Source: Gemmatimonadaceae bacterium (GTDB taxonomy: Bacteria > Gemmatimonadota > Gemmatimonadetes > Gemmatimonadales > Gemmatimonadaceae). Taken from it: 64,000 nucleotides of DNA. The notes beneath the pieces were generated by a model. That model worked only from the letters and a program-made list of their open reading frames with translations. It made no database searches and had not been told where the DNA came from. Of this stretch, positions 1 through 35,779 are shown piece by piece; the stretch's first letter is position 1, and every line of letters starts with the position of its first letter. Location: the NCBI GenBank assembly GCA_035273185.1, contig DATEPM010000180.1:105-64104 (forward strand), in the 5' to 3' direction. Position numbers and translations under genes: made by a program.

Positions 1-196
1 CCGGAAAGCCGATATTCCGCGGACCAGATGGCGATCGGGGGACGCGCCACTGAGGACGCGTGATGATCTGCTTCGGATCCCAGCCGAGGCGCTGCGTTAA
101 GTAGAAGACGAGCGGCTGCGTTGCGTCACGCTCTTCCGGCCCAGCGACAATCTCGCGGCCGGAGAGTTGATCAACGACCACTGCTCGACGTGCCAT
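1..196 (-). CDS. partial CDS (N-terminus only, runs off the left edge); candidate HsdR_N / restriction-endonuclease-like N-terminal domain
   Basis: Own translation of the minus strand from ATG 196-194: MARRAVVVDQLSGREIVAGPEERDATQPLVFYLTQRLGWDPKQIITRPQWRVPRSPSGPRNIGFP. It stays open to position 1. A GAGAGGG SD-like motif lies 5 nt upstream. The E..D....L...L...LGW pattern recalls HSDR_N-type domains. It is absent from the ORF track because it is open-ended. Confidence 0.35.
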   Translation of the reverse strand, partial: MARRAVVVDQLSGREIVAGPEERDATQPLVFYLTQRLGWDPKQIITRPQWRVPRSPSGPRNIGFP

Positions 197-206
197 CGGT
201 GCCCTC

Positions 207-389
207 TCAGAGGGGTCGCCGGGCAGTCCTGCGCGGAAGCCGCCGAGCAATGGCGGATCGCTTCCGCGGCCTGTTCCAGTAGGCGCTCTTGCACTTCGGG
301 CAGACCCGCGGCTCGTTCTCGGAATCGCGCGGCACCCACGTATGGTTGCACCGCTCGCACTTGAATCCAGAGAGGGTAATTCGCGCCAT
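207..389 (-). CDS. small zinc-ribbon protein (two CxxC pairs)
   Basis: 60-aa ORF MARITLSGFKCERCNHTWVPRDSENEPRVCPKCKSAYWNRPRK. It is preferred over the overlapping motif-less ORF 97..480. It ends 10 nt before the next minus-strand start at 196. Confidence 0.6.
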   Translation of the reverse strand: MARITLSGFKCERCNHTWVPRDSENEPRVCPKCKSAYWNRPRKRSAIARRLPRRTARRPL

Positions 390-529
390 GGGCGCGGATT
401 ATCGTGTGGGAGAGCTTCTCTGTCAAGTAGCTGATTGGAGAGTAAGCGCACACCAGCACACTCTCGGCAACAGCTCCCATCCACCTGGTCGAGAGGCCGC
501 GCAGTGTGCCGCAAAGTGGCGTAGCACCA

Positions 530-558
530 TTGACTTACGCCGTTGATTAGAGTATACT
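530..558 (+). promoter_or_regulatory. near-consensus sigma70-type promoter (TTGACT - 17 nt - TATACT) facing the 694-3101 operon
   Basis: TTGACT at 530-535, a 17-nt spacer and TATACT at 553-558 sit in an AT-richer patch between divergent genes. The same TTGACA-17-TAnnnT architecture precedes rpsL and the tRNA cluster in this window. Confidence 0.4.
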
Positions 559-693
559 TATCCCACAATACACAGAAAGAGCGGCACCGGCTCACCCTGA
601 GAAAGTAGACCGGCACCGCTCTCCACCGGCCCGAGGGCCAGTGCGCGTACAATACGCTCATCCGGCCCCGGGCACAACCCGAGGAGTCTGGAC

Positions 694-1119
694 ATGGCGT
701 ACGAGGAATGGCAGGACGAGCAGCTCCCGGAAGACTGGGATCCCCGCGATCCCGACTGGGCACCCCAGGTTCCGGTCGAGCACGAGCGGCGGGCGCGCGG
801 CCGCATCAAGTACGAGGTGACGGCGAAGGGCCGCGAGGCGCTGGAAGCCGCCCAGCGCGAACTCGAACTACTCGCCATCGCGCGGGCGCCCGAGCTGGTC
901 CGGCAGCGCGCGATCGCGGAGATCGAGCAGCGCATCATCGCGACCGAGGGCGTCTTCTACGTCTGCGGTCGCTACTACGGGTCGCTCGGAGCAGCCGACA
1001 GCGCCCGCCGGATCGCCGCCGAGCGGATGTACCGGCAGGCGAAGCGGAAGGCGGTGCACGAGCGTGTGCGCGCCTATCTGGCGGCGCATGAACCAGAGTC
1101 GGACGGCAGGGCAGCGTGA
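694..1119 (+). CDS. hypothetical protein (acidic N-terminus, helical)
   Basis: 141-aa ORF and first gene of the coupled operon. Its stop overlaps GTG 1116 of the next frame. No motif recognised. Confidence 0.55.
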   Translation: MAYEEWQDEQLPEDWDPRDPDWAPQVPVEHERRARGRIKYEVTAKGREALEAAQRELELLAIARAPELVRQRAIAEIEQRIIATEGVFYVCGRYYGSLGAADSARRIAAERMYRQAKRKAVHERVRAYLAAHEPESDGRAA

Positions 1120-1193
1120 CCATCACCGCCGGGCGCGACTCCGGTGTTCGGTGGCCGCGCCCGGCCTCACCACTACGACAGCCGGAGATAACG

Positions 1194-1412
1194 ATGCGAA
1201 TACGTCAGGTACGCGGGCGGACGACGCTGCCTCCAGAAGACGTCGCACTGCTCGAGCGGCACGCGGCGCGGCGGGGCGTCCCGCTCCAGGAACTGCTCGA
1301 CGACGCGTTCAGCACGGGGATCGAGCTGATGCTCGAGGACGCGGAGGTCGCGGAATTACCAGCGGACGAACCGGAGCTGCCGCTGATGCGGTCCTCCGGG
1401 ATGATCTCGTGA
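1194..1412 (+). CDS. ribbon-helix-helix (CopG/Arc-like) DNA-binding protein
   Basis: MRIRQVRGRTTLPPEDVALLERHAARRGVPLQELLDDAFSTGIELML fits a beta-alpha-alpha RHH pattern. GGAG lies 6 nt upstream of ATG 1194. The track ORF starts at GTG 1116, but that extension is R/P-rich and unlikely. Confidence 0.5.
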   Translation: MRIRQVRGRTTLPPEDVALLERHAARRGVPLQELLDDAFSTGIELMLEDAEVAELPADEPELPLMRSSGMIS

Positions 1413-1428
1413 GCGAGAGGAGGCGACA

Positions 1429-2130
1429 ATGGCGGGACTGAAGGGAAAATGGGGCCACGTGACCATGAGCGGGCATTCCGCGTACGAGGTCATGAGCGCG
1501 CTCCAAAAGGCCATTCGCCGGGGCCAGGAAGACCTGGCGATGCACTGGGCGTACGAGCTGGTGTCGTGCGGCCGGTTCTACGTCCTCCTCAACCGGCTGC
1601 GGGTGATCGCAGCGGAGGACGTGGGCATGGGTGATCCAGAGGCGGTGATGTACGCGCTGCAGATGATCGAGCTCGCCGACCGCTGGTGGAGAGGCAAGGG
1701 GGAATGGATGCTGGGGGTGGCCAATGCCATCCTGACGCTCGCCAGAGCCAAGAAGTCGCGGGTGGCGGACCACTTCTACTGGGCGGTCCGGGTGCGGGAG
1801 ATGAACGGGTGGAATCCGGACATCCCGGACGAGGCGCTCGATGCCCACACGCAGCGCGGGCGACAGATGGGAAGAGGACCACGGTTCTTCATCGAGGAGT
1901 CGAGCCGGCTCGCCAACGAGGCGGGCCAGGTGGCGGTGCCCGACCCCTACAAGGCGGAGTTCGACGCCTACTGGTCGGAGGTGACGGACCAGAACGCGGC
2001 GGAGGACGCGGCCTTCGGGCCACGGACGGACGCAGGCAAGAAGCCGGCGAAGAAGCCTGACGAGCCGGAGCTGCCGGAGGGCAACGCCGATCAGCAGCTC
2101 CAGTTCGTGGACGACGGCAAGGAGGGCTGA
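1429..2130 (+). CDS. stand-alone RarA/MgsA C-terminal (MgsA_C-like) domain protein with no AAA+ ATPase module
   Basis: SAYEVMSALQKAIRRGQEDLAMHWAYEL...LRVIAAEDVGMGDPEAV...ILTLARAKKSRV...LDAHTQRGRQMGRG parallels the E. coli RarA C-terminal region (HYDLISALHKS.RGS..DAALYW...IASEDVGNADP...YLA.APKSN...HLRNAPT.LMK.MGYG). No Walker A or B motif is present. GGAGG RBS before ATG 1429. Low-complexity K/P/E tail. Confidence 0.75.
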   Translation: MAGLKGKWGHVTMSGHSAYEVMSALQKAIRRGQEDLAMHWAYELVSCGRFYVLLNRLRVIAAEDVGMGDPEAVMYALQMIELADRWWRGKGEWMLGVANAILTLARAKKSRVADHFYWAVRVREMNGWNPDIPDEALDAHTQRGRQMGRGPRFFIEESSRLANEAGQVAVPDPYKAEFDAYWSEVTDQNAAEDAAFGPRTDAGKKPAKKPDEPELPEGNADQQLQFVDDGKEG

Positions 2131-2133
2131 ACG

Positions 2134-2751
2134 ATGCGGCTCGAGGACCCAGAGATCGATACCTCGCCAGGTGCAACGGCGGGAGTCGCCGCTGCGACTC
2201 TGGAGGCGCCGAGAGTGCCGCGGAGGCGGCCGGAGACCATTCGTGAGCGGTGGCTGCGACTCGGGAGAGTGGCGCCGCTCCGCATGGTCCGGGAGGCCGG
2301 CTACGTGGCCGCAATTACAGCAGAGAGGCCGGCGATCCGCAGCCCGATAGACGCGGTGCAGCTGATGGCACCGATCGCAGCGCGGGAGCTCGCGGAGGTG
2401 TTCTTCACGCTGCTGCTCGACAGCCAGCACCGACTCCTCGCCATCCCGACGAAAAATGATCGAGGCGAGCCGGAGCTGGTTGCAGGTCCCGTCGTGGTGA
2501 CGCGCGGGATCATCAATTCTTCGCTCGCTCATCCGCGCGAGGTCTTCCGGGCCGCGGTCGTCTACGGAGCGTCCGCGGTCATTCTCGTCCACCAACACCC
2601 GAGCGGCGATCCGACACCGAGTGCCGACGACCGGCTCGTGACCCAACAGCTGGTCGCCGCCGGCCGGCTGGTGGACATTCCGGTGCACGACCACATCGTG
2701 CTCGGGAGTGGAGGACGCTACACGAGTTTCGCTGAGGCGGGACTGCTATGA
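2134..2751 (+). CDS. radC: RadC-like JAB/MPN domain protein
   Basis: Intact JAMM-type motif ILVHQHPSGDPTPSADDRLVTQQL, then DIPVHDHIVLG....YTSFAE, typical of the RadC C-terminus. GGAGGG RBS. Starts 4 nt after the previous stop. Confidence 0.9.
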   Translation: MRLEDPEIDTSPGATAGVAAATLEAPRVPRRRPETIRERWLRLGRVAPLRMVREAGYVAAITAERPAIRSPIDAVQLMAPIAARELAEVFFTLLLDSQHRLLAIPTKNDRGEPELVAGPVVVTRGIINSSLAHPREVFRAAVVYGASAVILVHQHPSGDPTPSADDRLVTQQLVAAGRLVDIPVHDHIVLGSGGRYTSFAEAGLL

Positions 2752-3101
2752 CACGGCGACGGGAACCGAGAAGTCCGAAAATAGCGCAGCGTTCGGCAAC
2801 GATGCGCGCGCCGGGCGGCCGGACCGTGATGGTATGCGCGTACGAGCGGCGCGGTGAGATGACGGCGGCCGAGATCACCTGGGCGCGCCAGGACGGCTCC
2901 GTGGAGCGGCGGGAGATCATCTATCGACGGGAGGACGTCGAGGACCTTCGCCCGGTGTTCGACGTCCTGCTCGAACAGCCAGCCATCGCCGAGGTGATCA
3001 TCGCCGCAGGTTGGCTCGAGCGACTCCTGGGCGGCGCTAGCGGAAGCGATCCGCGCGAACGGCTGGCGCGGGACGGAGTCGGATCGGGTGGAGGTGAGTG
3101 A
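2748..3101 (+). CDS. hypothetical protein
   Basis: 117-aa ORF whose ATG overlaps the radC stop (ATGA). Last gene of the operon. No motif recognised. Confidence 0.5.
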   Translation: MTRRREPRSPKIAQRSATMRAPGGRTVMVCAYERRGEMTAAEITWARQDGSVERREIIYRREDVEDLRPVFDVLLEQPAIAEVIIAAGWLERLLGGASGSDPRERLARDGVGSGGGE

Positions 3102-3112
3102 CCAACCGGCGG

Positions 3113-3649
3113 TCAGCGATAGGCGCGGCGCAGCTCGGGTATCAACGCAGAGTTGCCGGAATCGGCGACGGCTTCGGCCACCGACCAGATGTCCTGAATG
3201 CTTTCTGAAGGTACGGTCTGATACTCCGATCCGGTGTAGGGCATCTTCTCGGTGGTGATCGAGAGCTGGTACCGCGTGGCGAGCGCCGGGTTTATCAGCA
3301 TGATCCGACCCTTCGGGATCCAGTCGTAGCGGGCGTCCTTGATCTGCTCAGCCCAGAGCGCGTCGGCATCCTTGTAGGCTTCCAGCGCCGAGGCGTAGTA
3401 CCGCAGGGTCGCGCTGTCCGACGCGCTGATTGCAAGATCACGAAGGATCAGGACCTGCGCAGCCGCATCCTGAAGGAGTGCATCGTAGCTAAGCCTGTTC
3501 ACGCCGATGGTGGTAGCTCCCGCGATTTTCTTGAACGCGCGATACGCCTCCTCGGCCGAATTCCGCCGAGGAAGGGCGGAACAAGCGACCGCGCCGACGG
3601 TCGCCAGCACCATCAGGCAGGAGTTCCGGAGTCTCCTAGCGTTCATCAT
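3113..3649 (-). CDS. predicted lipoprotein, lower-GC cargo gene
   Basis: MMNARRLRNSCLMVLATVGAVAC has a signal peptide with a lipobox-like VAC. GGGAGGGA precedes ATG 3649, whereas the track start GTG 3661 lies inside that RBS. The sequence is visibly less GC-rich than its neighbours. Confidence 0.65.
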   Translation of the reverse strand: MMNARRLRNSCLMVLATVGAVACSALPRRNSAEEAYRAFKKIAGATTIGVNRLSYDALLQDAAAQVLILRDLAISASDSATLRYYASALEAYKDADALWAEQIKDARYDWIPKGRIMLINPALATRYQLSITTEKMPYTGSEYQTVPSESIQDIWSVAEAVADSGNSALIPELRRAYR

Positions 3650-3691
3650 TCCCTCCCTCACAAGGGGGTGTTCGGACCTGGGTGGTGCGAC

Positions 3692-3702
3692 GGTCGCCAG
3701 AA
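3692..3702 (+). repeat. GGTCGCCAGAA, left copy of an 11-nt direct repeat (candidate attL core)
   Basis: Identical 11-mer at 10164-10174, just outside the integrase gene. Both copies are followed by ATAC, with one extra C in the left copy. Confidence 0.3.
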
Positions 3703-3958
3703 CATACCTTCGGCCAAGTGCATTAGCACGTTTTTAGAATCGGGTGGGCGATTCTGGAAGTAAGGGCACGGGCAATCCGCTCTTGCGCTGCCATTCGGAT
3801 TCTGCCATCCTGTACCACGCGCGCCACTGATTGCACTGAGTGGCGGTCCGCAGCGAAGTCAGCGCACCGCGAACGTGCGGGTACCCGGTCCGAGGCAGGG
3901 CCGCGTTCCCGCACGTTTCGCATTTTAGGGCCAGCGGGGTTGGCGGGAGGAGAAGCGG

Positions 3959-4204
3959 ATGGTAGTGACAGAGCGCGAGCTCACGGCCGACGCGGAGGTC
4001 ATGGATATCGAAGCGTTCCGGTGCTGGTTCGAGCAGCAGACGGGGATCAAGGTGTGCCGGCGAACGTGGTACAGCTGGATCGAGCGGGAGATGGTCCCAT
4101 CGTGGCCATTGGGCAGTCGCCGGTTCATCCGGAAGGCGGATGCGGAGCGTCTGGTCCGGGACGGTGTATCGCCGCGGCGTGGCCAGAAGCGGAGGGCGCG
4201 CTGA
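3959..4204 (+). CDS. excisionase/MerR-type helix-turn-helix protein
   Basis: 81-aa ORF with GGAGGAG RBS. ...KVCRRTWYSWIEREMVPSWPLGSRRFIRKADAERLV resembles HTH_17/Xis-type proteins. Confidence 0.6.
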   Translation: MVVTERELTADAEVMDIEAFRCWFEQQTGIKVCRRTWYSWIEREMVPSWPLGSRRFIRKADAERLVRDGVSPRRGQKRRAR

Positions 4205-4749
4205 TGGCGGAATACACAGCCGTCCTCCAGCCGATCCCGATTACCGCCGGGGAGATCGAGCAGCGCCGCGCAGAAGCCGAGCGGGCGCGCGATGACGAGC
4301 GCCGTGCAGGGGCGGAATGGAGCGCCGCCGGGGATGAGGTCGTGCGCCTTGCGACAGAGCTCGACACCCTGCGCGATCGCTACGGCAAGGCGCCGCGTGA
4401 TCCGGCCGCGACGGCCGAGGTGATGGGAGAGTTGAAGCGGCAGATCGAGACTGCCGAGCACACGCTGGCGCTAGCGCGCGGACGGCATGAGCGCCTGGGG
4501 AAGGAAGGCGACGATCGACGCGTTCTCCGCGAGCAGGCGGATGCGCGCTACCGAGCGGCGATCGAAGAGGCGCGGCGTATACACGACCGACTGCCAGGCG
4601 CGGTGCGCGCGCTCGCGAGTCGGCAGCGCGATGTCGCGCAACGCGAGCACGAGCTGATGCTCGCTCGCTCGGGAGTCGAGACGGATAGCCAAGCGATCGA
4701 AGACGCGAGGCGCCGGTATGAGCAGCTGACCGGCGGCCAGCAGCTGTAG
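4204..4749 (+). CDS. coiled-coil protein (possible scaffold-like), function unknown
   Basis: ATG 4204 overlaps the preceding stop (ATGA). The 181-aa sequence is E/R/A-rich with heptad-like character (AEAERARDDERRAG...). The longer track ORF 3940..4749 overlaps the HTH gene and was trimmed. Confidence 0.55.
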   Translation: MAEYTAVLQPIPITAGEIEQRRAEAERARDDERRAGAEWSAAGDEVVRLATELDTLRDRYGKAPRDPAATAEVMGELKRQIETAEHTLALARGRHERLGKEGDDRRVLREQADARYRAAIEEARRIHDRLPGAVRALASRQRDVAQREHELMLARSGVETDSQAIEDARRRYEQLTGGQQL

Positions 4750-4810
4750 GGACGTCGGCGCCGGCGGGCGGCGCGACGGTGATTCGGGGTAGTGGAGGTG
4801 GGGGGGGAGG

Positions 4811-5785
4811 ATGAGACAGATGGCAGCGACTGCGTACCGGTCCGTGCCGCGCGTTGGAGCGCCACGCGTGCGGGCCGCGGCGGCAGTGCCGGCGAACGGG
4901 CCGAAGATCGCACCCAACGGGAGGCCGTACGACGTGCGGTTCGTGGCCTCGACGGAGCGGCTGGCGATGGATGGTGGGGTGATCCTGTCCAACGCGTGGG
5001 ATCTCACGCGATTCATGCAGCGCCCGCGGTTCCTGGAGATGCACGACCTGCACGCGGCGAACGGACTCACGCGGACGGTGCTGGGCTCCGTCGTGCACGC
5101 GGGCGTGGAGACGGATGTGCCGACCGCCATCGCGGGGCCGACCGGTCGCGCGCTCGTCGAGTACGTCCGGTTCGCGGGCACGCCATACGCGCAGGAGGTG
5201 AAGTCGTTGTACGACGATGGGCATCTGAGCGATTGCTCCGTGCGCTGGGATCCGAGGACCGAGCGCACGCGCGCGCCATCGGCGCAGGAGACGGCCCGCT
5301 ATGGCGAGGGTGTCCAGTGGATCGCGACCCGCGCGGAACAGCTGGAGCTGTCGGCCGTGATCCTGGGCGCGGACCCTGGCGCGATGGAGCTCGCCGGTGC
5401 CGGCGTGGACAGCAGCATGAACCCTAGGGTCATGGCGGCGTTCGCGCGTGCGCGCGCAGCGGGGCGGCGGCTGCCGCTCCTCGAGAAGCGGATCGTCGAG
5501 ACTGTCCGACGACGCCGGCGCGGGATCGACAGTTCCGCCGCGCAGTCCGTGGTCGCCGATCTCTCGACGTCGATGGACGCGCTGGACGCGCTGCTCGCGG
5601 CGATCGGGACGGTGCGGCAGCAGATCGTGGACAATGTTGCGCTCCTCCGAGACTGCATGGCATCGGCGGTGGAGGCGGACGTTAACGGCCGCGGCGATTG
5701 GAATGAGCTGTCCGAGAAGCTGCTCGAGGAGATCGGTCTCCGGATCGCGCTCGAGGAGATCGGTTTGCGCCTCGGGAACAACTAG
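4811..5785 (+). CDS. HK97-family (S78) prohead protease homolog with a C-terminal helical extension
   Basis: VRFVASTERLAMDGGVI...RPRFLEMHD...LSDCSVRW...ELSAVILGADPGA matches the conserved blocks of prohead proteases (F.AS.E..D..G.vi; ..l..HD; lS.Gf; E.S.V..PA.P.A). The C-terminal 120 aa are helical and end in a duplicated LEEIGLR. Confidence 0.7.
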   Translation: MRQMAATAYRSVPRVGAPRVRAAAAVPANGPKIAPNGRPYDVRFVASTERLAMDGGVILSNAWDLTRFMQRPRFLEMHDLHAANGLTRTVLGSVVHAGVETDVPTAIAGPTGRALVEYVRFAGTPYAQEVKSLYDDGHLSDCSVRWDPRTERTRAPSAQETARYGEGVQWIATRAEQLELSAVILGADPGAMELAGAGVDSSMNPRVMAAFARARAAGRRLPLLEKRIVETVRRRRRGIDSSAAQSVVADLSTSMDALDALLAAIGTVRQQIVDNVALLRDCMASAVEADVNGRGDWNELSEKLLEEIGLRIALEEIGLRLGNN

Positions 5786-6000
5786 CGGAGGTGCGGCAGG
5801 GTAAGCCGTTCGCTCTCCGAATGGGCCAGCGAGATCGATCCGAGACGAAGGGGCTGTCAAGAGTCAGAATCGCCACCGCGTGTCAGCTCATGTCGCACCG
5901 TGTCGGATCCAGTCGACTCCGAACCGCTCCCGCCTACCCTATTCCTCATTCGACCGGATCGTCAGCCGTTAGGCACCCGTATATTGGTCACCAGCCAACG

Positions 6001-6014
6001 TGTACGTACGTACA
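6001..6014. promoter_or_regulatory. perfect 14-bp palindrome TGTACGTACGTACA (operator-like)
   Basis: Lies between a TATATT hexamer (5980-5985) and the GGAGG RBS (6027-6031) of the small HTH gene. Confidence 0.3.
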
Positions 6015-6035
6015 TGCGGGGTTGACGGAGGTTGA

Positions 6036-6203
6036 ATGAAAATGACGGTGGAATTAGAGGGGCGGATCCCGGCGCCCGTCGCTGCGATGCAGCGGAAGAT
6101 GAGTCGCGAGCGACTGATCCGGCTCATCCAGTCCGGGGAAATCCCCGGCGGAAGGGATGACGCCGGGTGGTATGTTCTCGCGCGTGAAGCGACTGCGGAC
6201 TGA
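6036..6203 (+). CDS. small excisionase/AlpA-like HTH protein (55 aa, below the ORF-track cutoff)
   Basis: Own translation: MKMTVELEGRIPAPVAAMQRKMSRERLIRLIQSGEIPGGRDDAGWYVLAREATAD*. GGAGG lies just upstream. Alternative starts at 6042 or 6087. Confidence 0.45.
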   Translation: MKMTVELEGRIPAPVAAMQRKMSRERLIRLIQSGEIPGGRDDAGWYVLAREATAD

Positions 6204-6281
6204 TCGTGGATATGGCAACGCCGCGCGGTCGGGCAAACCGTCGCGGCGTCTGAGCCAGACCCAGGGTGATGGGCGGAGGCT

Positions 6282-7382
6282 GTGGTGGGAAATTACAAGA
6301 CTGGACATCTCAGTGGTAGCGGTGACGAATCGGTCAGCATCCGTGGCGACTGGCGGCCTCTATACCTGGAGCTCGCCGACGATGCCGGCTTCCAGCGGCT
6401 CAGCGGACGCGCCGCGAAGCTCTGGCTCCTGTTGAAGTGCACGTTGCCCGCCACCGGCATCGGGGTCGTGTATCCCTCGAAGCTCTGTGACCAAATGGGC
6501 TGCGGGAAGGCGGAGCTCGAGAAAGCGATGATCGAGCTACAGGCGCCGAGACCCGGCTATACCCGCGGCTGGATCGAGCGGGAGCAGAACATCGTCTGGA
6601 TCATCGATGGATTGCGCGAGGCGGCGCTTTACTCCAACAACGTGAAGAAGCATCGGCCGTACGTGCACCGGCTCGTGGCGCCGCTCCCTCGCCAGCTGAC
6701 GATCGTGCGGCGTTTCAAGGCGGAGTACGAGGAGTGGTTCCCTGGTGAGATCGATAGTCTATCGGATACGGTATCGGATACCCAGGCGATACAAAAGACA
6801 CCTACTGTAGACAAGACAGTAAACGACACTGCCAAAGCAGAGATCCCGACCGCGCCATCGCTCGCTCTCGTGAAGATCCGTGACTCGGCAGTGGCACCCC
6901 GCTCTCCTAGGTGCCTCCGGGCCGCGGAGGTCATAGCCGCCATTAAGGCGGAGTTCGAGGACGAGGCGCAGAAGACGATCCGACGCCGCAGCACCACCGA
7001 GGCGCGGGAGAAGGCGGCGGAGTTCGTGTTCGCCTATTGGGCGACGAAGCTCGATCACCCGAACACGCTGCTTGACGACAAGCGTCTCGCCCTGCTCATG
7101 CGCCGGCTGAAGGAGAACGGCGACAACGCGTCGGAGCTCTTCTACGTGATCGACGGCGCGCTCAGGGATGACTGGACGATGGGCCGGGCCCCGCGATCCG
7201 AGAGGAAGTACGACGGCATCGAGACGATTTTCAGGTCGCGCGCGAAGGTGGAGGAGCTGGCGGGGCTCTGCGGACCGTACCGCGACCGCACCCCTCATCC
7301 TCGTGCTGCCAAGATCGCGGCGATCCTCCGAGCCGCGGCGGTTCCGACGACGAACGCCGTCGCGGACGCGGCGCGTGGATGA
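6282..7382 (+). CDS. phage replication-organizer-like protein (C-terminal Phg_2220_C/DnaD-like domain)
   Basis: The C-terminus FVFAYWATKLDHPNTLLDDKRLALLMRRLKENGDNASELFYVIDGALRDDWTMG....KYDGIETIF fits the pattern LN..tg..f......I.aRl.eG...edf..VId.k...W.......YlrPeTlF. Confidence 0.6.
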   Translation: MVGNYKTGHLSGSGDESVSIRGDWRPLYLELADDAGFQRLSGRAAKLWLLLKCTLPATGIGVVYPSKLCDQMGCGKAELEKAMIELQAPRPGYTRGWIEREQNIVWIIDGLREAALYSNNVKKHRPYVHRLVAPLPRQLTIVRRFKAEYEEWFPGEIDSLSDTVSDTQAIQKTPTVDKTVNDTAKAEIPTAPSLALVKIRDSAVAPRSPRCLRAAEVIAAIKAEFEDEAQKTIRRRSTTEAREKAAEFVFAYWATKLDHPNTLLDDKRLALLMRRLKENGDNASELFYVIDGALRDDWTMGRAPRSERKYDGIETIFRSRAKVEELAGLCGPYRDRTPHPRAAKIAAILRAAAVPTTNAVADAARG

Positions 7383-7747
7383 GGTCTTCATCGATGCACG
7401 CTAACCGACCATTCATCCCGAACATGCCCCCCGTGACGTTGGAGGAGCGGGAACTGTGGGCGCGGCATCGGGTGGTGGATCTCACGCGCCAACTCGTGAC
7501 GGCTCCGAGCCTCGTGCTCGCCGACTCAATCGTCTTCTCCGCCCTTCGCCGCGAGATTGCCGATCTCGGCACCATTGAGCTTGCGATCGCGCGAGCGCCG
7601 AAGCGTGGTGGGGATCAGACCGCCACACGCGACCGACACGAACAGCCAGAAGCCGAAGTGCTACAGCAGGTTGGCCCCTCCCGTAAGGTGCCGAAGAAGC
7701 GGAAGGGCTCTATGGTTGCGCAGGAGCGTGCCCGTGTCGGCGCGTGA
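7379..7747 (+). CDS. hypothetical protein
   Basis: 122-aa ORF; ATGA overlap with the upstream gene. Confidence 0.5.
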   Translation: MRSSSMHANRPFIPNMPPVTLEERELWARHRVVDLTRQLVTAPSLVLADSIVFSALRREIADLGTIELAIARAPKRGGDQTATRDRHEQPEAEVLQQVGPSRKVPKKRKGSMVAQERARVGA

Positions 7748-8330
7748 CGGAAAATCGCCATCGCTGCGCCAGCTCCGGCGCGACCAGCGGCGCCAGCTCG
7801 TTCGCGATCTGTTGCCGCAACATCTGTCCGCGCGGAAGATGGCGCAGGCGCTGGGCTGCACGCAGCGGACCATCGAGCGAGACATCGCGGCGGTTCGGCG
7901 CCAGCTGCAGGCGGAGATCGCCGTCAGCAGTGTGCTCGACATCGCGGCCAAGATCGTCGCATCGACCGAGGCGATCGACCGCACGCTATGGAGCATCGTG
8001 GCCGACAGAACGGCGAGCCCGCAGGCGCGCGTGGCTGGCGCGGCGGTGTTGATCAAGAATCGAGACTCGTGGGTGCGAGGGCTCCAGTCGTTGGGTATCA
8101 CGTTCAAGGCGCCCGAGCGGATCCAGGTGCAGGTGACGCTCTGGGACAAGATCATGGGGCTCTCGCCCGAGGAGTCGGAGCACCTGTTCGCGCTGACGAA
8201 GGAGCCGGAGCAGTTCTGGCCCGCGGCGGCGAAGCTGATGGGGCCGGAGTTCGTCGCGAACTGGCGTCCGCAGCTGACAAGCGGTGCGGAGGACATGGTG
8301 GTGGACGTTGGGGAGGTGGGAGATGCATAG
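7734..8330 (+). CDS. HTH-domain protein, possibly small-terminase-like
   Basis: In-frame GTG 7734 overlaps the previous stop. LSARKMAQALGCTQRTIERDIAAVRRQL is an HTH followed by a helical region. The start is uncertain (the track ORF begins at 7557). Confidence 0.45.
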   Translation: MSARDGKSPSLRQLRRDQRRQLVRDLLPQHLSARKMAQALGCTQRTIERDIAAVRRQLQAEIAVSSVLDIAAKIVASTEAIDRTLWSIVADRTASPQARVAGAAVLIKNRDSWVRGLQSLGITFKAPERIQVQVTLWDKIMGLSPEESEHLFALTKEPEQFWPAAAKLMGPEFVANWRPQLTSGAEDMVVDVGEVGDA

Positions 8331-8592
8331 CAGCAATTTCCTGGTGCCATACACACCGCGCCCGGATCGGCAGCGCCGGCCCGCGTCGGCGGCAGTCCTG
8401 CAATCGGTGGCGGTCGGCCAGTTGCATTACCTGATCGAGACGCGCCAGTGGACGGTCGAGCAGTGGCCGCCTTCGGTCGATGGAAAGTCGGAGTTCCTCG
8501 CAGCGCTGGATGAAGACATCGAGGCGTGGCGGCGGCGGCTGCGTGCACTCGATTGCCTGGACCCCGGACACGCACCGGAGGCAACGGCGTGA
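8323..8592 (+). CDS. hypothetical protein
   Basis: ATG 8323 is preceded by GGGAGGTGGGAG. The track start 8284 gives a W/R-rich leader. Confidence 0.45.
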   Translation: MHSSNFLVPYTPRPDRQRRPASAAVLQSVAVGQLHYLIETRQWTVEQWPPSVDGKSEFLAALDEDIEAWRRRLRALDCLDPGHAPEATA

Positions 8593-8954
8593 CGCACGCG
8601 GAGCTGCTCGGCCGCTGGCGAGCGCGCAGGGAGGAATACCAGCGCCTGCACGTGATGGTGGACGGTGCCGCCATCGTCGACGAGATGCTTGCCGATCTGC
8701 GTGAGCTCGAGGAGGACGATGTTGTGTCCCTCCAGCAGGCGAGCGCGATCGGCGGCTACTCGATCGATCACCTCCAGCGCCTCGTTCGCGAGGGCCGGAT
8801 TGAGAACCGCGGCCGGAAGCACGCGCCGAGGATCAGGCGGGCGGACGTGCCGGTGAAGGCCGGCTTCACCGGCGCCTTGCCAATGCGCACAGGTGATGCA
8901 GAATTCTCCATACGCCGGCGGATCGTGGCCGATGTCAAACACGGAGACGTGTGA
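8589..8954 (+). CDS. excisionase-type HTH protein
   Basis: GTG 8589 overlaps the previous stop (GTGA). VSLQQASAIGGYSIDHLQRLVREGRIENRG..HAPRIRRADV is HTH_17-like. Confidence 0.55.
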   Translation: MTHAELLGRWRARREEYQRLHVMVDGAAIVDEMLADLRELEEDDVVSLQQASAIGGYSIDHLQRLVREGRIENRGRKHAPRIRRADVPVKAGFTGALPMRTGDAEFSIRRRIVADVKHGDV

Positions 8955-8955
8955 T

Positions 8956-10131
8956 ATGGCATCGACTCGACGGCAGCAGAAAGTCTGGTCGTTCATCGCG
9001 GGGGAGAAGGGCGCGAATCGCGTGCGCGTCTACGCGCGCGGGGATCGCGGCGGCATCTGGGTCGACTACCGCGATGATCAAGGAAAGCGGCACCGCGAGC
9101 CGCTGGGGGAACTCACCCCAGATCAGGCGAAGCAGAGGGCGGAGGCGATCGCGGCGAAGTTCCGGCGCGAGGGACCGCGCCAACCGACACGCGCGACGCT
9201 GTCGGCGCTGATTGACATGTACGAGGGGGAGGTGACGCCGACGAAGGTCGACACCGTGCAGGCGCATGATCGCCGGGCATTCGAGCTGTTCAGGCGCGCT
9301 TTCGGCCCTGATCGGCGCCCGGAGACGCTATCTCGGCGAGACTGGGACTCCTACATCTCCGCGAGGAGATCGGGCCGCCTGCGGCCTCCTGGGACGAAAC
9401 GGAAGGGGGTTCGCGACCGGGTGATCGAGCAGGATTTGAATTTGCTCAACGCGTTGCTCAACTGGGCGACACAAGCCGGTGATGGCCGCGGCGGGTACCT
9501 GCTCGAGCGGAATCCGCTGAAGGGGCTGCCGGTCCCGAAGGAGGAGAGCCCCAAGCGGGCGCTGCTCACGCCGGAGCAGTTCGCGAAGGTGCGGACGGTG
9601 GCGGCAGCCATGAGTTCGCGGCTCGAGTGTTTCGCGGTGCTGGCGTGGTACACCGGCCATCGCGCCGCCTCGATCCGGCAGCTCCGATGGAGCGACGTGG
9701 ACCTGGAGAACGCGCGCATCCACTGGCGCGGCGAGGCCGACAAGATCGGGCTCGATCACTGGAACCCGCTGCACCCGGAGGCGGTGGCGGCACTGAAGGC
9801 GGAGCAGGGGCGCGCGGCGGCGATCGGCGATGCGTGGGTGTTCCCCGCTGCCAGGGATGCGCGGACCCCATTGTCCAGAAACGCTGTGTGCAACTTGTGG
9901 AAACGGATCGCGGCGAAGGCGAAGCTCCCCACCGGCGAGCGGTACGGCTGGCACTCGTGCCGGCGGGCGTTCGCGAACCGACTGCGGCGGGTGCCACTGC
10001 GGGACCTGCAGGATCTGGGAGGGTGGAAGACGTCGGCGACGCTGCTGACGGTGTATCTCCGAGCCGACGAGGACGCCCAACGCGAGGCGCTGGCCCAGGA
10101 CGCGCCCGTGTCAGCTACGGGCAACGGGTAG
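8956..10131 (+). CDS. int: tyrosine recombinase / phage-type integrase
   Basis: ATG 8956 lies directly after the stop at 8954. The catalytic pattern is present: GHRAASIRQLRWSDV (Arg), HSCRRAFANRL (H-x-x-R) and GGWKTSATLLTVYLR (Tyr). Confidence 0.9.
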   Translation: MASTRRQQKVWSFIAGEKGANRVRVYARGDRGGIWVDYRDDQGKRHREPLGELTPDQAKQRAEAIAAKFRREGPRQPTRATLSALIDMYEGEVTPTKVDTVQAHDRRAFELFRRAFGPDRRPETLSRRDWDSYISARRSGRLRPPGTKRKGVRDRVIEQDLNLLNALLNWATQAGDGRGGYLLERNPLKGLPVPKEESPKRALLTPEQFAKVRTVAAAMSSRLECFAVLAWYTGHRAASIRQLRWSDVDLENARIHWRGEADKIGLDHWNPLHPEAVAALKAEQGRAAAIGDAWVFPAARDARTPLSRNAVCNLWKRIAAKAKLPTGERYGWHSCRRAFANRLRRVPLRDLQDLGGWKTSATLLTVYLRADEDAQREALAQDAPVSATGNG

Positions 10132-10163
10132 AATGGGCACCAGGAACAGGCACCAGCGGCTCT

Positions 10164-10174
10164 GGTCGCCAGAA
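10164..10174 (+). repeat. GGTCGCCAGAA, right copy of the 11-nt direct repeat (candidate attR core)
   Basis: Lies in the 108-bp spacer between the integrase stop (10131) and the rpsG stop (10240). Confidence 0.3.
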
Positions 10175-10239
10175 ATACGATGCCCCGCCGGCCGGGCAGG
10201 GCCAAGCGGGGCAACGGGTTGGGAACGAGGCGGTCTGGC

Positions 10240-10710
10240 CTACCAGCGGTAGTGGGCGAAGGCCTTGTTCGCGTCGGCCATGCGGTGTGTGTCGTCCTTC
10301 TTCTTCACCGCGTTACCCTCGCCCTTGGACGCCGCGATCACCTCGGCCGCGAGCTTCTCGGGCATGGACTTCTCGTTGCGCTCGCGCGAGTACAGGATGA
10401 GCCAGCGCATCGCCAGCGCGGTGCGGCGCTCGGGGCGCACTTCCACCGGCACCTGGTAGGTGGCGCCGCCCACGCGGCGGCTCTTCACCTCGACCACCGG
10501 CTTGAGGTTCGCCAGCGCCTGCTTGAACACGTTGACCCCGGGCTGATTGGTGCGGGACTCCACCAGATCCATGGCGCCGTAGAAGATGCGCTCGGCGGTG
10601 GACTTCTTCCCCTCGTACATCAGCACGTTGATGAACTTCGAGACGGTCTGGCTGTCGTAGCGCGCGTCGGCCAGCACCGGACGCTTCACTGCACTCTTGC
10701 GGCGGCTCAC
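10240..10710 (-). CDS. rpsG: 30S ribosomal protein S7
   Basis: [46 protein letters not shown]...[18 protein letters not shown] 10710 overlaps the rpsL stop (GTGA). Confidence 0.95.
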
Positions 10711-11102
10711 TTCTTCCCTCCGGCGGCTGCGCCCTTCGGCTTCTTGGTGCCGTACTTCGACCGGCTGCGGTTCCGACCATTCACGCCCGCCGCGTCCAGC
10801 GTGCCGCGGACGATGTGATAGCGCACGCCCGGGAGATCCTTCACGCGGCCGCCGCGCACCAGCACGATGGAGTGCTCCTGCAGGTTGTGCCCCTCGCCGG
10901 GGATGTACGCGATGATCTCGAAGCCGTTCGTCAGGCGCACCTTGGCCACCTTGCGCAGCGCCGAGTTCGGCTTCTTGGGGGTGGTGGTGTAGACGCGCGT
11001 GCACACCCCCCGGCGGAAGGGGTTCGACTGCAGCGCCGGCGACTTCTCCTTCTTGATCACGTCGCGGCGACTCTGCCGGACGAGCTGATTGATGGTCGGC
11101 AT
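10707..11102 (-). CDS. rpsL: 30S ribosomal protein S12
   Basis: [57 protein letters not shown]... Trimmed to the conserved MPTINQL start. Confidence 0.95.
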
Positions 11103-22634: not shown

Positions 22635-22679
22635 ATTCATTTCGTGCGCGTGTTTCAGTTTCGTGTGCGTGCGAGCCGC

Positions 22680-26999
<4,320 letters not shown>

Positions 27000-35167: not shown

Positions 35168-35365
35168 GGATAGTTGCCTTCGATTCCGTTGCTCAGTCCT
35201 TCGGTGCGCACCCCGGTCCGCTGAGCGACGGACCCCGGGTACGACTCAACTCGTCAATTCGTGAACGCAGCCGACAGCCCGCCACGGAGCGCCTCGCGCC
35301 GCAGCCGGCTGCCACTTCCCGCATCTCCATCCCTTTTCGCCACCACCAGCCTGCCATTCCTCGAG

Positions 35366-35438
35366 AGCTCGCGATCGGGATTGAACCGATGACCTCACCC
35401 TTACCAAGGGTGTGCTCTACCAACTGAGCTACGCGAGC
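35366..35438 (-). tRNA. tRNA-Thr (anticodon GGT)
   Basis: Minus strand GCTCGCGTAGCTCAGTTGGTAGAGCACACCCTTGGTAAGGGTGAGGTCATCGGTTCAATCCCGATCGCGAGCT folds as a cloverleaf. Anticodon loop is TTGGTAA. No encoded CCA. Confidence 0.9.
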
Positions 35439-35486
35439 ATGCGCGCGTGCAATCGACTTCCCAGCTCGTCCAGCCACCTCACCTAG

Positions 35487-35559
35487 AGCGGGAGACGGGG
35501 CTCGAACCCGCGACATCAAGCTTGGAAGGCTTGCGCTCTACCAACTGAGCTACTCCCGC
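35487..35559 (-). tRNA. tRNA-Gly (anticodon TCC)
   Basis: GCGGGAGTAGCTCAGTTGGTAGAGCGCAAGCCTTCCAAGCTTGATGTCGCGGGTTCGAGCCCCGTCTCCCGCT; anticodon loop CTTCCAA. Confidence 0.9.
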
Positions 35560-35586
35560 GAATTCCCGACCCCGCATTCGCCGGCA

Positions 35587-35669
35587 TGGTGGGGGAAGGA
35601 TTCGAACCTTCGAAGGCGTTAGCCGGCAGATTTACAGTCTGCTCCCGTTGGCCGCTTGGGTACCCCACC
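35587..35669 (-). tRNA. tRNA-Tyr (anticodon GTA), long variable arm
   Basis: GGTGGGGTACCCAAGCGGCCAACGGGAGCAGACTGTAAATCTGCCGGCTAACGCCTTCGAAGGTTCGAATCCTTCCCCCACCA; anticodon loop CTGTAAA. Confidence 0.9.
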
Positions 35670-35706
35670 GGTTTCGCATCGCCGCTCGGCACCGTCCACG
35701 CCCGAG

Positions 35707-35779
35707 AGCTGACGGTGGGAATCGAACCCACAACCGCCGGTTTACAAAACCGGTGCTCTGCCGATTGAGCTACGTCAGC
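35707..35779 (-). tRNA. tRNA-Thr (anticodon TGT)
   Basis: GCTGACGTAGCTCAATCGGCAGAGCACCGGTTTTGTAAACCGGCGGTTGTGGGTTCGATTCCCACCGTCAGCT; anticodon loop TTTGTAA. Confidence 0.9.

Follow-up and report, generated by a model that had tools for sequence, protein, structure and literature searches.

We analysed a 64-kb stretch of DNA (64,000 nt, here called the window) from contig DATEPM010000180.1 of a Gemmatimonadaceae bacterium (assembly GCA_035273185.1), and in particular a five-gene operon near its left end that is carried by an integrative island. All coordinates refer to the window unless marked L089. The latter is a second assembly of the same element, which showed 0 mismatches to the window across 12,130 nt and of which the coordinates minus 8572 give window coordinates. 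The GC content of the first 11 kb of the window is around 0.63-0.71, and that of the genome about 66%. A sequence-only reading of this DNA had proposed the operon as a candidate undescribed system, composed of two proteins lacking recognizable motifs, a ribbon-helix-helix (RHH) DNA binder, a protein containing only the C-terminal domain of RarA/MgsA, and a RadC-type JAB protein.

The operon consists of five plus-strand open reading frames (ORFs), named ORF1 to ORF5 and located at 694-1119, 1194-1412, 1429-2130, 2134-2751 and 2748-3101. These coordinates agree with the ORF listing, all five frames show the coding pattern of high GC at first, low GC at second and high GC at third codon positions, and the same five genes were called by two independent gene callers on other assemblies of the element. 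The near-consensus promoter described earlier is present as well: a sigma-70-like operon promoter, TTGACT-17-TATACT, lies on the plus strand at 530..558 and matches the consensus at 10 of 12 positions. A second sigma-70-like promoter, TTGACA-17-GATAAT (398..426, minus strand, 11 of 12 positions), is divergent and serves a zinc-ribbon/restriction-modification (RM) unit. Scanning positions 1-4200 returned 2 promoter sites, against 0.3 expected from shuffled sequences. We conclude that the five genes of the operon and its promoter are real.

Two of the gene spacings proposed from the sequence were correct, i.e., 16 nt ahead of ORF3 and 3 nt ahead of ORF4, and the two others needed adjustment. For ORF1 and ORF2, a gap of at most 74 nt had been given. 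Starting ORF2 at the alternative GTG 1116 would add a stretch that lacks the coding signature, as calculated from codon-position GC, and most likely the start is ATG 1194 with a gap of the full 74 nt. The 4-nt overlap between the RadC gene and ORF5 is doubtful. Because the NCBI annotation starts ORF5 at GTG 2826, giving a product of 91 aa, and because codons 1-26 of the 117-aa version (2748-2825) do not have the coding GC pattern (0.62/0.77/0.65) that is found in 2826-3101, the gap between these two genes may be 74 nt. As read from the sequence, ORF1 to ORF4 are each preceded by a Shine-Dalgarno (SD)-like GGAG/GAGG motif. The tight packing had been taken to imply a shared function, but such spacing is normal in mobile elements and does not on its own demonstrate one. 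ORF3 and ORF4 (1429-2751) also share a reading frame, with TGA and one codon (ACG) between them; a hypothetical read-through of the ORF3 stop codon would yield a 439-aa fusion of the two proteins.

A 13-nt inverted repeat (AGAGCGGCACCGG / CCGGCACCGCTCT; 85% complementary) is located on the plus strand at 578..622 (578-590/610-622), just past the -10 box. Its place in the likely transcript is about +13 to +57, within the leader and not over the promoter. The repeat may serve as an operator, or else form the first hairpin in a 135-nt leader with secondary structure. Folding of the leader (565-700) gave -52.4 kcal/mol (z=-2.66), which was better than every shuffled sequence. No family was matched in an Rfam scan of positions 1-11000, which includes the leader.

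Protein families encoded by the operon

The product of ORF3 (1429..2130, plus strand; 233 aa) contains the RarA/MgsA C-terminal helical domain and no other domain, as had been proposed; the Pfam family, a profile comparison with the PDB and a fold search agree on this. MgsA_C (PF12002) scored 51.9 bits against a gathering cut-off of 27 and was the sole Pfam match, with the domain starting around residue 18; no AAA+ family was found in the Pfam scan. The NCBIfam models for RarA cover ORF3 only by their C-terminal parts and far below cut-off. With the family profile, the closest PDB entries were 2r9g (E=1.6e-22) and 3pvs, E. coli MgsA (E=1.5e-19). The AF2 model (pLDDT 85) is all-helical across residues 18-196, beyond which the protein has a disordered, acidic/lysine-rich tail. 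Foldseek returned the RarA C-terminal structures 2r9g, 8g28, 3pvs, 3bge and 3ctd as top matches, with a probability of 1.0, followed by clamp-loader collar domains.

ORF3 is thus a member of the MgsA_C domain family. It retains all residues that are invariant in the family alignment (S23, K27, R30, E63, D64, K109, H140 and G144), and shares with RarA/MgsA (PDB 3PVS; fragments 2R9G, 3BGE, 3CTD and 8G28) both the all-helical C-terminal fold and the motifs S..QK.IR, ED(V/I)G..DP, KS and PD..D.H. It differs from RarA by being encoded on a mobile element, by the disordered charged tail and by the absence of an AAA+ module. Since this defining ATPase is absent, ORF3 is not a RarA/MgsA/WRNIP1 recombination factor. 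RarA acts as a tetramer that is recruited by the C-terminus of SSB, and has ATP-driven activity on DNA ends and flaps (PMC5389604). Having no AAA+ module, ORF3 is incapable of this activity. By analogy, an ATPase-less copy with a conserved C-domain surface could still bind a RarA-type partner or ligand, with no remodelling of DNA.

ORF4 (2134..2751, plus strand; 205 aa) carries a RadC-type JAB domain at residues 68-204. The identification made from the sequence was borne out by PF04002 (115.8 bits, cut-off 22.1), which aligned over profile positions 1-121 of 121, and by a match to PDB entry 2qlc (E=3.4e-17). In the translation, the JAB/MPN+ metal motif E...HxH...S..D is intact and reads PREVF...HQHPSGDPTPSADD; in the family-membership comparison the motif string was PREVF ... 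VHQHPSGDPTPSADD. The models for full-length RadC remained under their cut-offs (TIGR00608, 112.2 vs 133.85 bits; NF000642, 115 vs 180 bits), and only model positions of about 85-218 were matched. No HhH family was found in the Pfam scan of ORF4, of which the N-terminal 65 residues are low-complexity and lineage-specific. We place ORF4 in the RadC JAB family but outside canonical chromosomal RadC (TIGR00608/PRK00024).

RadC recurs as a solo or fused domain in prophages and conjugative elements, the predicted substrates of its JAB domain being nucleic acids or nucleotides and not ubiquitin-like tails (PMC5512222). ORF4 is of this solo kind found on mobile elements. Like ORF4, the RadC-like JAB proteins that stand alone in prophages, integrative islands and plasmids (2QLC fold) have an intact metal motif without the HhH N-domain, and they too occur in accessory operons of integrase-bearing elements, beside small unknown proteins. 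Plasmid RadC pairs with other small partners, e.g., DUF3085 (PMC12826799). The genes that accompany ORF4 are different ones, with neither DUF3085 nor ArdC-N nor a helicase fusion among them.

The three remaining genes encode small proteins. ORF1 (694..1119, plus strand; coding GC pattern 0.77/0.49/0.86) encodes a protein of 141 aa, with an acidic N-terminus followed by a helix, a beta-hairpin and a helix. Its AF2 model (pLDDT 85) matched no fold in the PDB. A word-indexed search of 5.8 billion protein clusters retrieved only ORF1 itself, and HMMER, run in full over 1.84 billion representatives, added 9 relatives that were weak or partial. The motif EQRIIATEGvFyV.GrYYg.lgaAd.aRRiaAER..R is conserved among the small relatives. 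A mini-domain of about 55 residues that carries no annotation (E..I...EG.F.V...YY.....A...RR..AER..R) is common to ORF1 and to P0051, P0052, P0055, P0058 and P0059, proteins of 59-131 aa; in the model, two long helices enclose a beta-hairpin. Three of the small relatives were looked up and lie on contigs of at most 1.1 kb, with downstream genes unrelated to those of the operon, one of which resembles mnmA as read from its translation.

ORF2 (1194..1412, plus strand; 72 aa) is a probable RHH DNA binder and, by its putative role, a candidate autoregulator. The RHH_1 profile (PF01402) matched residues 11-39 over profile positions 5-33 of 39, with 15.7 bits (E=0.015), which is below the cut-off of 20.5; the RHH assignment of the sequence-only reading is retained as probable. 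ORF5 (2748..3101, plus strand; 117 aa, or 91 aa with the GTG 2826 start) is an ORFan that matched only itself among the 5.8 billion protein clusters. Neither ORF2 nor ORF5 had a match among PDB sequences. ORF1 and ORF5 had been described as lacking any recognizable motif, in agreement with the absence of a family in Pfam, PHROGs, NCBIfam and PADLOC.

Occurrence of the gene set and of standalone MgsA_C genes

The conservation of the operon was examined in 248 other loci with an MgsA_C-only gene, of which 8 came from exact-protein look-ups and 80 each from viral, genome and metagenome sources. ORF1, ORF2 and ORF5 had no match in these loci by tblastn at 1e-3, nor by phmmer among their 14,142 ORFs, even at E<=1. 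A RadC gene was found within about 6 kb of the MgsA_C-only gene in 8 distinct loci of the 248, and was adjacent to it in two of the eight (L051 and L098). From the gene counts of the loci, 0.88 adjacent cases are expected (P(>=2)=0.22). In both adjacent cases RadC lies upstream of the MgsA_C-only gene, i.e., in the reverse of the window order. Approached from the other side, the only 2 viral loci found with relatives of this RadC have no MgsA_C or ORF5-like gene near it. With the defence models of PADLOC-DB v2, ORF1, ORF2, ORF3 and ORF5 gave no match, and ORF4 matched only JAB at E=0.036.

We could assign the operon to no known defence system or recurrent gene set, and its combination of genes was found nowhere else in the public data searched. 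The proposal of an undescribed five-gene system, for which recurrence of MgsA_C-only, radC and the two unknown genes in other genomes had been suggested as a check, is not borne out: the unknown genes occur in 0 of 248 loci, adjacency of RadC is at chance level, and the gene set is not conserved beyond close relatives, an outcome that the proposal itself had named as its refutation.

The MgsA_C-only family itself is widespread, with at least 204 viral contigs, at least 346 genome loci and more than 483 metagenome loci. Most relatives have 180-235 aa, and they are encoded by phages, bacteria and archaea. In IMG/VR, the genes form 40 clusters at 70% identity, and in 31 of the 40 the gene is accompanied on its own strand by one for a TAGT (PF20691) DNA-glycosyltransferase, usually directly upstream with a gap of typically 67-154 nt. 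The TAGT/MgsA_C pair is often flanked by ParB_N, PIG-L, WbqC, ATP-grasp or methyltransferase genes, and the block is located just before the terminase gene. Examples among the phage loci L001-L088 are L002:4139-5625, L083:3053-3796 and L051:1418-6552. Among the proteins assigned to TAGT is the second glucosyltransferase of T6-like phages (PMC13390438).

Cultured Microbacterium phages carry the same block; in Smarties (L254, 50604-52788) the MgsA_C gene is annotated as 'AAA-ATPase'. Smarties gp95 (Quhwahvirus) and A0A649VW77 of the Arthrobacter phage BeatusComedenti share the standalone domain of ORF3, with about 190-240 aa, and belong to the same family (33% identity; Foldseek E=2e-8). In those phages the module consists of a ParB-like nuclease, a glycosyltransferase, in some cases a UDP-glucose dehydrogenase, and the MgsA_C-only protein, whereas the island has RadC downstream instead. 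The relative of ORF3 that is closest among those with usable flanks (L001, 54% identity) has TAGT directly upstream, and TAGT is also found near a relative with 45% identity (L009). For the island we used hidden Markov models (HMMs) built from such neighbours (56 TAGT, 13 TAGT-b, 62 ParB_N and 26 PIG-L sequences). No ORF of the 20.7-kb island locus matched TAGT, ParB_N or PIG-L at HMM E<=10.

The linkage to TAGT points to a possible role of the RarA C-domain fold in sugar modification of phage DNA. In a fold search of BFVD with the ORF3 model, MgsA_C-like domains were found within larger giant-virus proteins; two of these, A0A1C9C4X7 and A0A1C9C5B9 of Heterosigma akashiwo virus 01 (407 and 657 aa, probability 1.0), bear the annotation of putative glycosyltransferase. 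Judged from the models, MgsA_C may be fused to a glycosyltransferase in these proteins, which would speak for a connection between the two. As a rule for the whole family, the TAGT link was rejected. TAGT is present near the MgsA_C-only gene in 66 of 72 viral loci from IMG/VR, but the counts for genome and metagenome loci are only 11 of 74 and 6 of 46; the link is specific to one large phage clade. Copies of the gene in archaea and Firmicutes have chromosomal surroundings. The MgsA_C-only protein clearly works without TAGT in many settings. In the literature library searched, no relevant paper dealt with standalone MgsA_C proteins or their linkage to TAGT.

Two other settings were apparent among these loci. 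In Enterococcus, Vagococcus, Thomasclavelia, Paraclostridium and relatives, and on E. faecium megaplasmids, the MgsA_C-only gene is flanked on one side by a divergent RpiR/SIS regulator and on the other by the gene of a PTS EIIC transporter (L121, L143 (5218-7884), L150, L151, L153, L158-L160, L164, L165 and L170). This is a sugar-uptake context with no obvious link to DNA. In Bathyarchaeia and other archaea (L105-L146, e.g., L116:3185-6531), the gene is found among housekeeping genes, such as those for TRM1 tRNA methyltransferase, P5C reductase, a HAD hydrolase, a glyoxalase and DUF7000, and the family is therefore not confined to mobile elements. A metagenomic MgsA_C-only homologue of 318 aa (P0020) has a C-terminal CxC...CxH extension resembling a SWIM zinc finger.

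The integrative island and its other genes

The operon was proposed to lie in integrase-bearing foreign DNA, and this was confirmed. A perfect 35-bp direct repeat occurs in two copies 16,242 bp apart (L089 2570-2604 and 18812-18846, 100% identical). The right copy, attR (10240..10274), is the 3' end of rpsG (Ribosomal_S7 gene, L089 18812-19282, minus strand) and encodes, on its reverse complement, the S7 C-terminus NKAFAHYRW* (last 11 codons); attL lies 6 kb upstream of the start of the window, within the 8.6 kb of upstream sequence that the second assembly supplies. A tyrosine integrase gene (PF00589; 8956..10131, L089 17528-18703, plus strand) is located beside rpsG. Because of the repeats at rpsG and the adjoining integrase, the element is identified as a 16.2-kb integrative island in the 3' end of rpsG, which is satellite-like or defective-prophage-like. 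Its insertion target is the end of a ribosomal-protein gene and not a tRNA gene.

The island starts with a gene for a tape-measure-like protein (PHROG E=1.5e-17) and one for a 174-aa unknown protein, followed by a split RM gene on the minus strand, a zinc-ribbon ORF, the five-gene operon, a convergent gene and a plus-strand backbone. The backbone comprises an HTH_17 excisionase-like gene, unknown genes, a replication-initiator-like gene (weak, PHROG E=3.5e-5), an HTH gene and the integrase gene. With its position between two minus-strand cargo units and apart from the excisionase-to-integrase backbone, the operon sits in the cargo part of the island.

The divergent pair that had been described as zinc-ribbon plus restriction-endonuclease-like is present, with the refinement that the endonuclease-like part is the N-terminus of a split type IIG-like RM gene. 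This gene (L089:6185-8768) consists of two ORFs 76 nt apart. The 397-aa ORF (L089 7575-8768), of which the first ~65 codons are in the window (1..196, minus strand), has an HSDR_N_2 nuclease-like N-terminus (weak, E=0.0013) and matches positions 20-94 of an N6 methyltransferase profile. The 437-aa ORF covers positions 128-243 of the methyltransferase profile and contains a specificity domain. By its sequence, the gene could code for a type IIG-like enzyme that has been disrupted or for one that is split by nature. It lies outside the operon and matched the PADLOC models for Type I/II methyltransferase and specificity subunits. The zinc-ribbon ORF (207..389, minus strand; 60 aa, CxxC...CxxC) matched Zn_ribbon_8 (E=3.8e-4) and TIGR02605 (E=3.2e-4), both below cut-off, and is absent from the lists of the gene callers.

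On the other side, the operon is bounded by a convergent minus-strand gene (3113..3661), which is reached 11 nt past the ORF5 stop codon. It encodes 177-182 aa with a hydrophobic N-terminal segment, as read from the translation, and had no family in Pfam, PHROGs, NCBIfam or PADLOC.

Some further features were noted around the island. Just left of attL and outside the window, a 379-aa ORF (L089:1719-2376) contains about 30 tandem degenerate 21-nt (7-aa) repeats and gave no family match. Transglut_core3 (transglutaminase-like) and PqqD genes, the usual gene pair for lasso-peptide maturation, are found at L089:507-1429, just outside the island. ARAGORN predicted a 90-nt tRNA-Lys(ctt) at 26269-26358 of the window, with the anticodon at position 30. 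It is enclosed by a long ORF on the plus strand (22644-26930) and another on the minus strand (22680-26999), and is probably spurious. An ordinary cluster of tRNA genes (Thr-Gly-Tyr-Thr) is present at 35365-35779.

Interpretation of the operon

We consider it probable that the five genes form a lineage-specific accessory operon of the integrative element, assembled ad hoc, and not a conserved multi-component system. Two independently mobile and widespread DNA-handling genes that are uncharacterised, MgsA_C-only and RadC, would have been joined to three local small genes, i.e., two orphan or near-orphan ORFs and the gene for the small RHH protein. We infer that the strong promoter drives all five genes, and that the RHH protein probably feeds back on this promoter or on the control region shared with the divergent unit. 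RadC would be a metal-dependent enzyme with nucleic acids or nucleotides as its substrates, and the conserved polar surface that the MgsA_C protein shares with RarA may serve to bind a partner protein, a nucleotide-like ligand or some DNA structure. Together they could aid the DNA of the element in establishment, in replication or in conflict with the host and rival restriction systems.

Several points weigh against an ad hoc assembly. The mechanism outlined above is extrapolated from family context for all five proteins. The searches have limited sensitivity for the very small and fast-evolving ORF2 and ORF5, and structural homologues could be missed. An integrase search of viral contigs gave no close relatives and no elements with the same backbone, and the position of the operon is no more than a putative variable cargo slot. 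Because the invariant residues of ORF3, the metal motif of RadC and good SD sites are all intact, selection seems to act on these genes, and this would fit a dedicated function. Furthermore, close coupling of MgsA_C-only with RadC was seen in three backgrounds that are unrelated to each other (the window, L051 and L098), which could reflect a real partnership; the sample is too small to establish it.

Such a partnership would mean that MgsA_C-only and RadC form a real two-gene module, in which the helical protein targets or regulates the nucleic-acid-processing RadC enzyme and to which, in this element, an RHH regulator and lineage-specific ORFs were added. The spacing agrees with this, with a 3-nt gap in the window (GC 0.67), a 4-nt overlap in the viral locus L051 (GC 0.40) and overlapping genes in Thermodesulfovibrionales L098 (GC 0.45). 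RadC is moreover on the strand of the MgsA_C-only gene in 8 of 8 distinct loci that have both, and is known to pair with varied small partners (PMC12826799). However, co-orientation is the norm in phage genomes, about 97% of the MgsA_C-only genes have no RadC nearby, the two adjacent cases do not exceed chance and have the opposite gene order, and relatives of this RadC occur in two viral loci without MgsA_C. We regard a two-gene module as unlikely. Slightly less credible still is the more specific version in which mobile elements deploy the pair at host DNA, here under control of the RHH protein and with two orphan effectors. MgsA_C might then dock on SSB, RarA or fork-like DNA and direct RadC there, and the island would carry an undescribed establishment or anti-defence module. 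The coupling in three backgrounds is compatible with a functional pair, and is statistically indistinguishable from chance.

A new defence, anti-defence or replication-hijack system formed by all five genes, e.g., an operon like those for anti-CRISPR proteins, seems improbable to us. The architecture fits: Aca-type anti-CRISPR and anti-defence operons also have a strong promoter with a nearby inverted repeat, orphan small proteins, a small regulator and a location on mobile elements, and here the operon lies in a cargo region next to an RM gene. RadC and ParB_N-type genes are typical of regions of conflict between mobile elements and hosts (PMC5512222). The likeness to Aca-type loci is architectural only, however, and of a generic kind. 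The inverted repeat of the operon is in the leader instead of over the promoter and may be a mere leader hairpin, the gene set is conserved nowhere, no PADLOC system was matched, and in the libraries searched none of the proteins had homology to a known anti-defence protein or Aca family. An equally small chance is given to the view that the MgsA_C-only gene is the leftover of a phage DNA-glycosylation module (ParB_N/TAGT/MgsA_C-only) that lost its glycosyltransferase, the operon being a decaying patchwork without coherent function in a degenerate element. The closest relatives of ORF3 do have TAGT nearby, the island has no TAGT, ParB_N or PIG-L, and it looks degenerate, with a lone tape-measure-like gene lacking other tail genes and a split RM gene. 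Decay is hard to reconcile with five intact ORFs that have coding GC patterns and SD sites and with the complete set of invariant residues in ORF3, and outside the phage clade MgsA_C-only genes mostly occur without TAGT.

We attach very little weight to a toxin-antitoxin or addiction module, in which the RHH protein would be the antitoxin and one of the downstream proteins a toxin that stabilises the island. A small RHH gene directly upstream of larger genes with short gaps would suit such a module, and RadC-like genes adjoin toxin-antitoxin pairs in CP4-type prophages of E. coli. On the other hand, the RHH match is under the Pfam cut-off, neither MgsA_C nor RadC is a known toxin family, the Pfam, NCBIfam and PADLOC scans revealed no toxin family, and MgsA_C-only genes elsewhere are not preceded by an RHH gene.

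With the accessory operon as the preferred explanation, the locus is one more idiosyncratic accessory operon that draws on two families already common in mobile DNA, and not a candidate new system. The standalone MgsA_C family is often mis-annotated as 'AAA-ATPase' or 'RarA', and retains the polar residues that are invariant in the RarA C-domain. Finding what the MgsA_C domain binds could inform both the biology of RarA/WRNIP1 and that of phage DNA modification.

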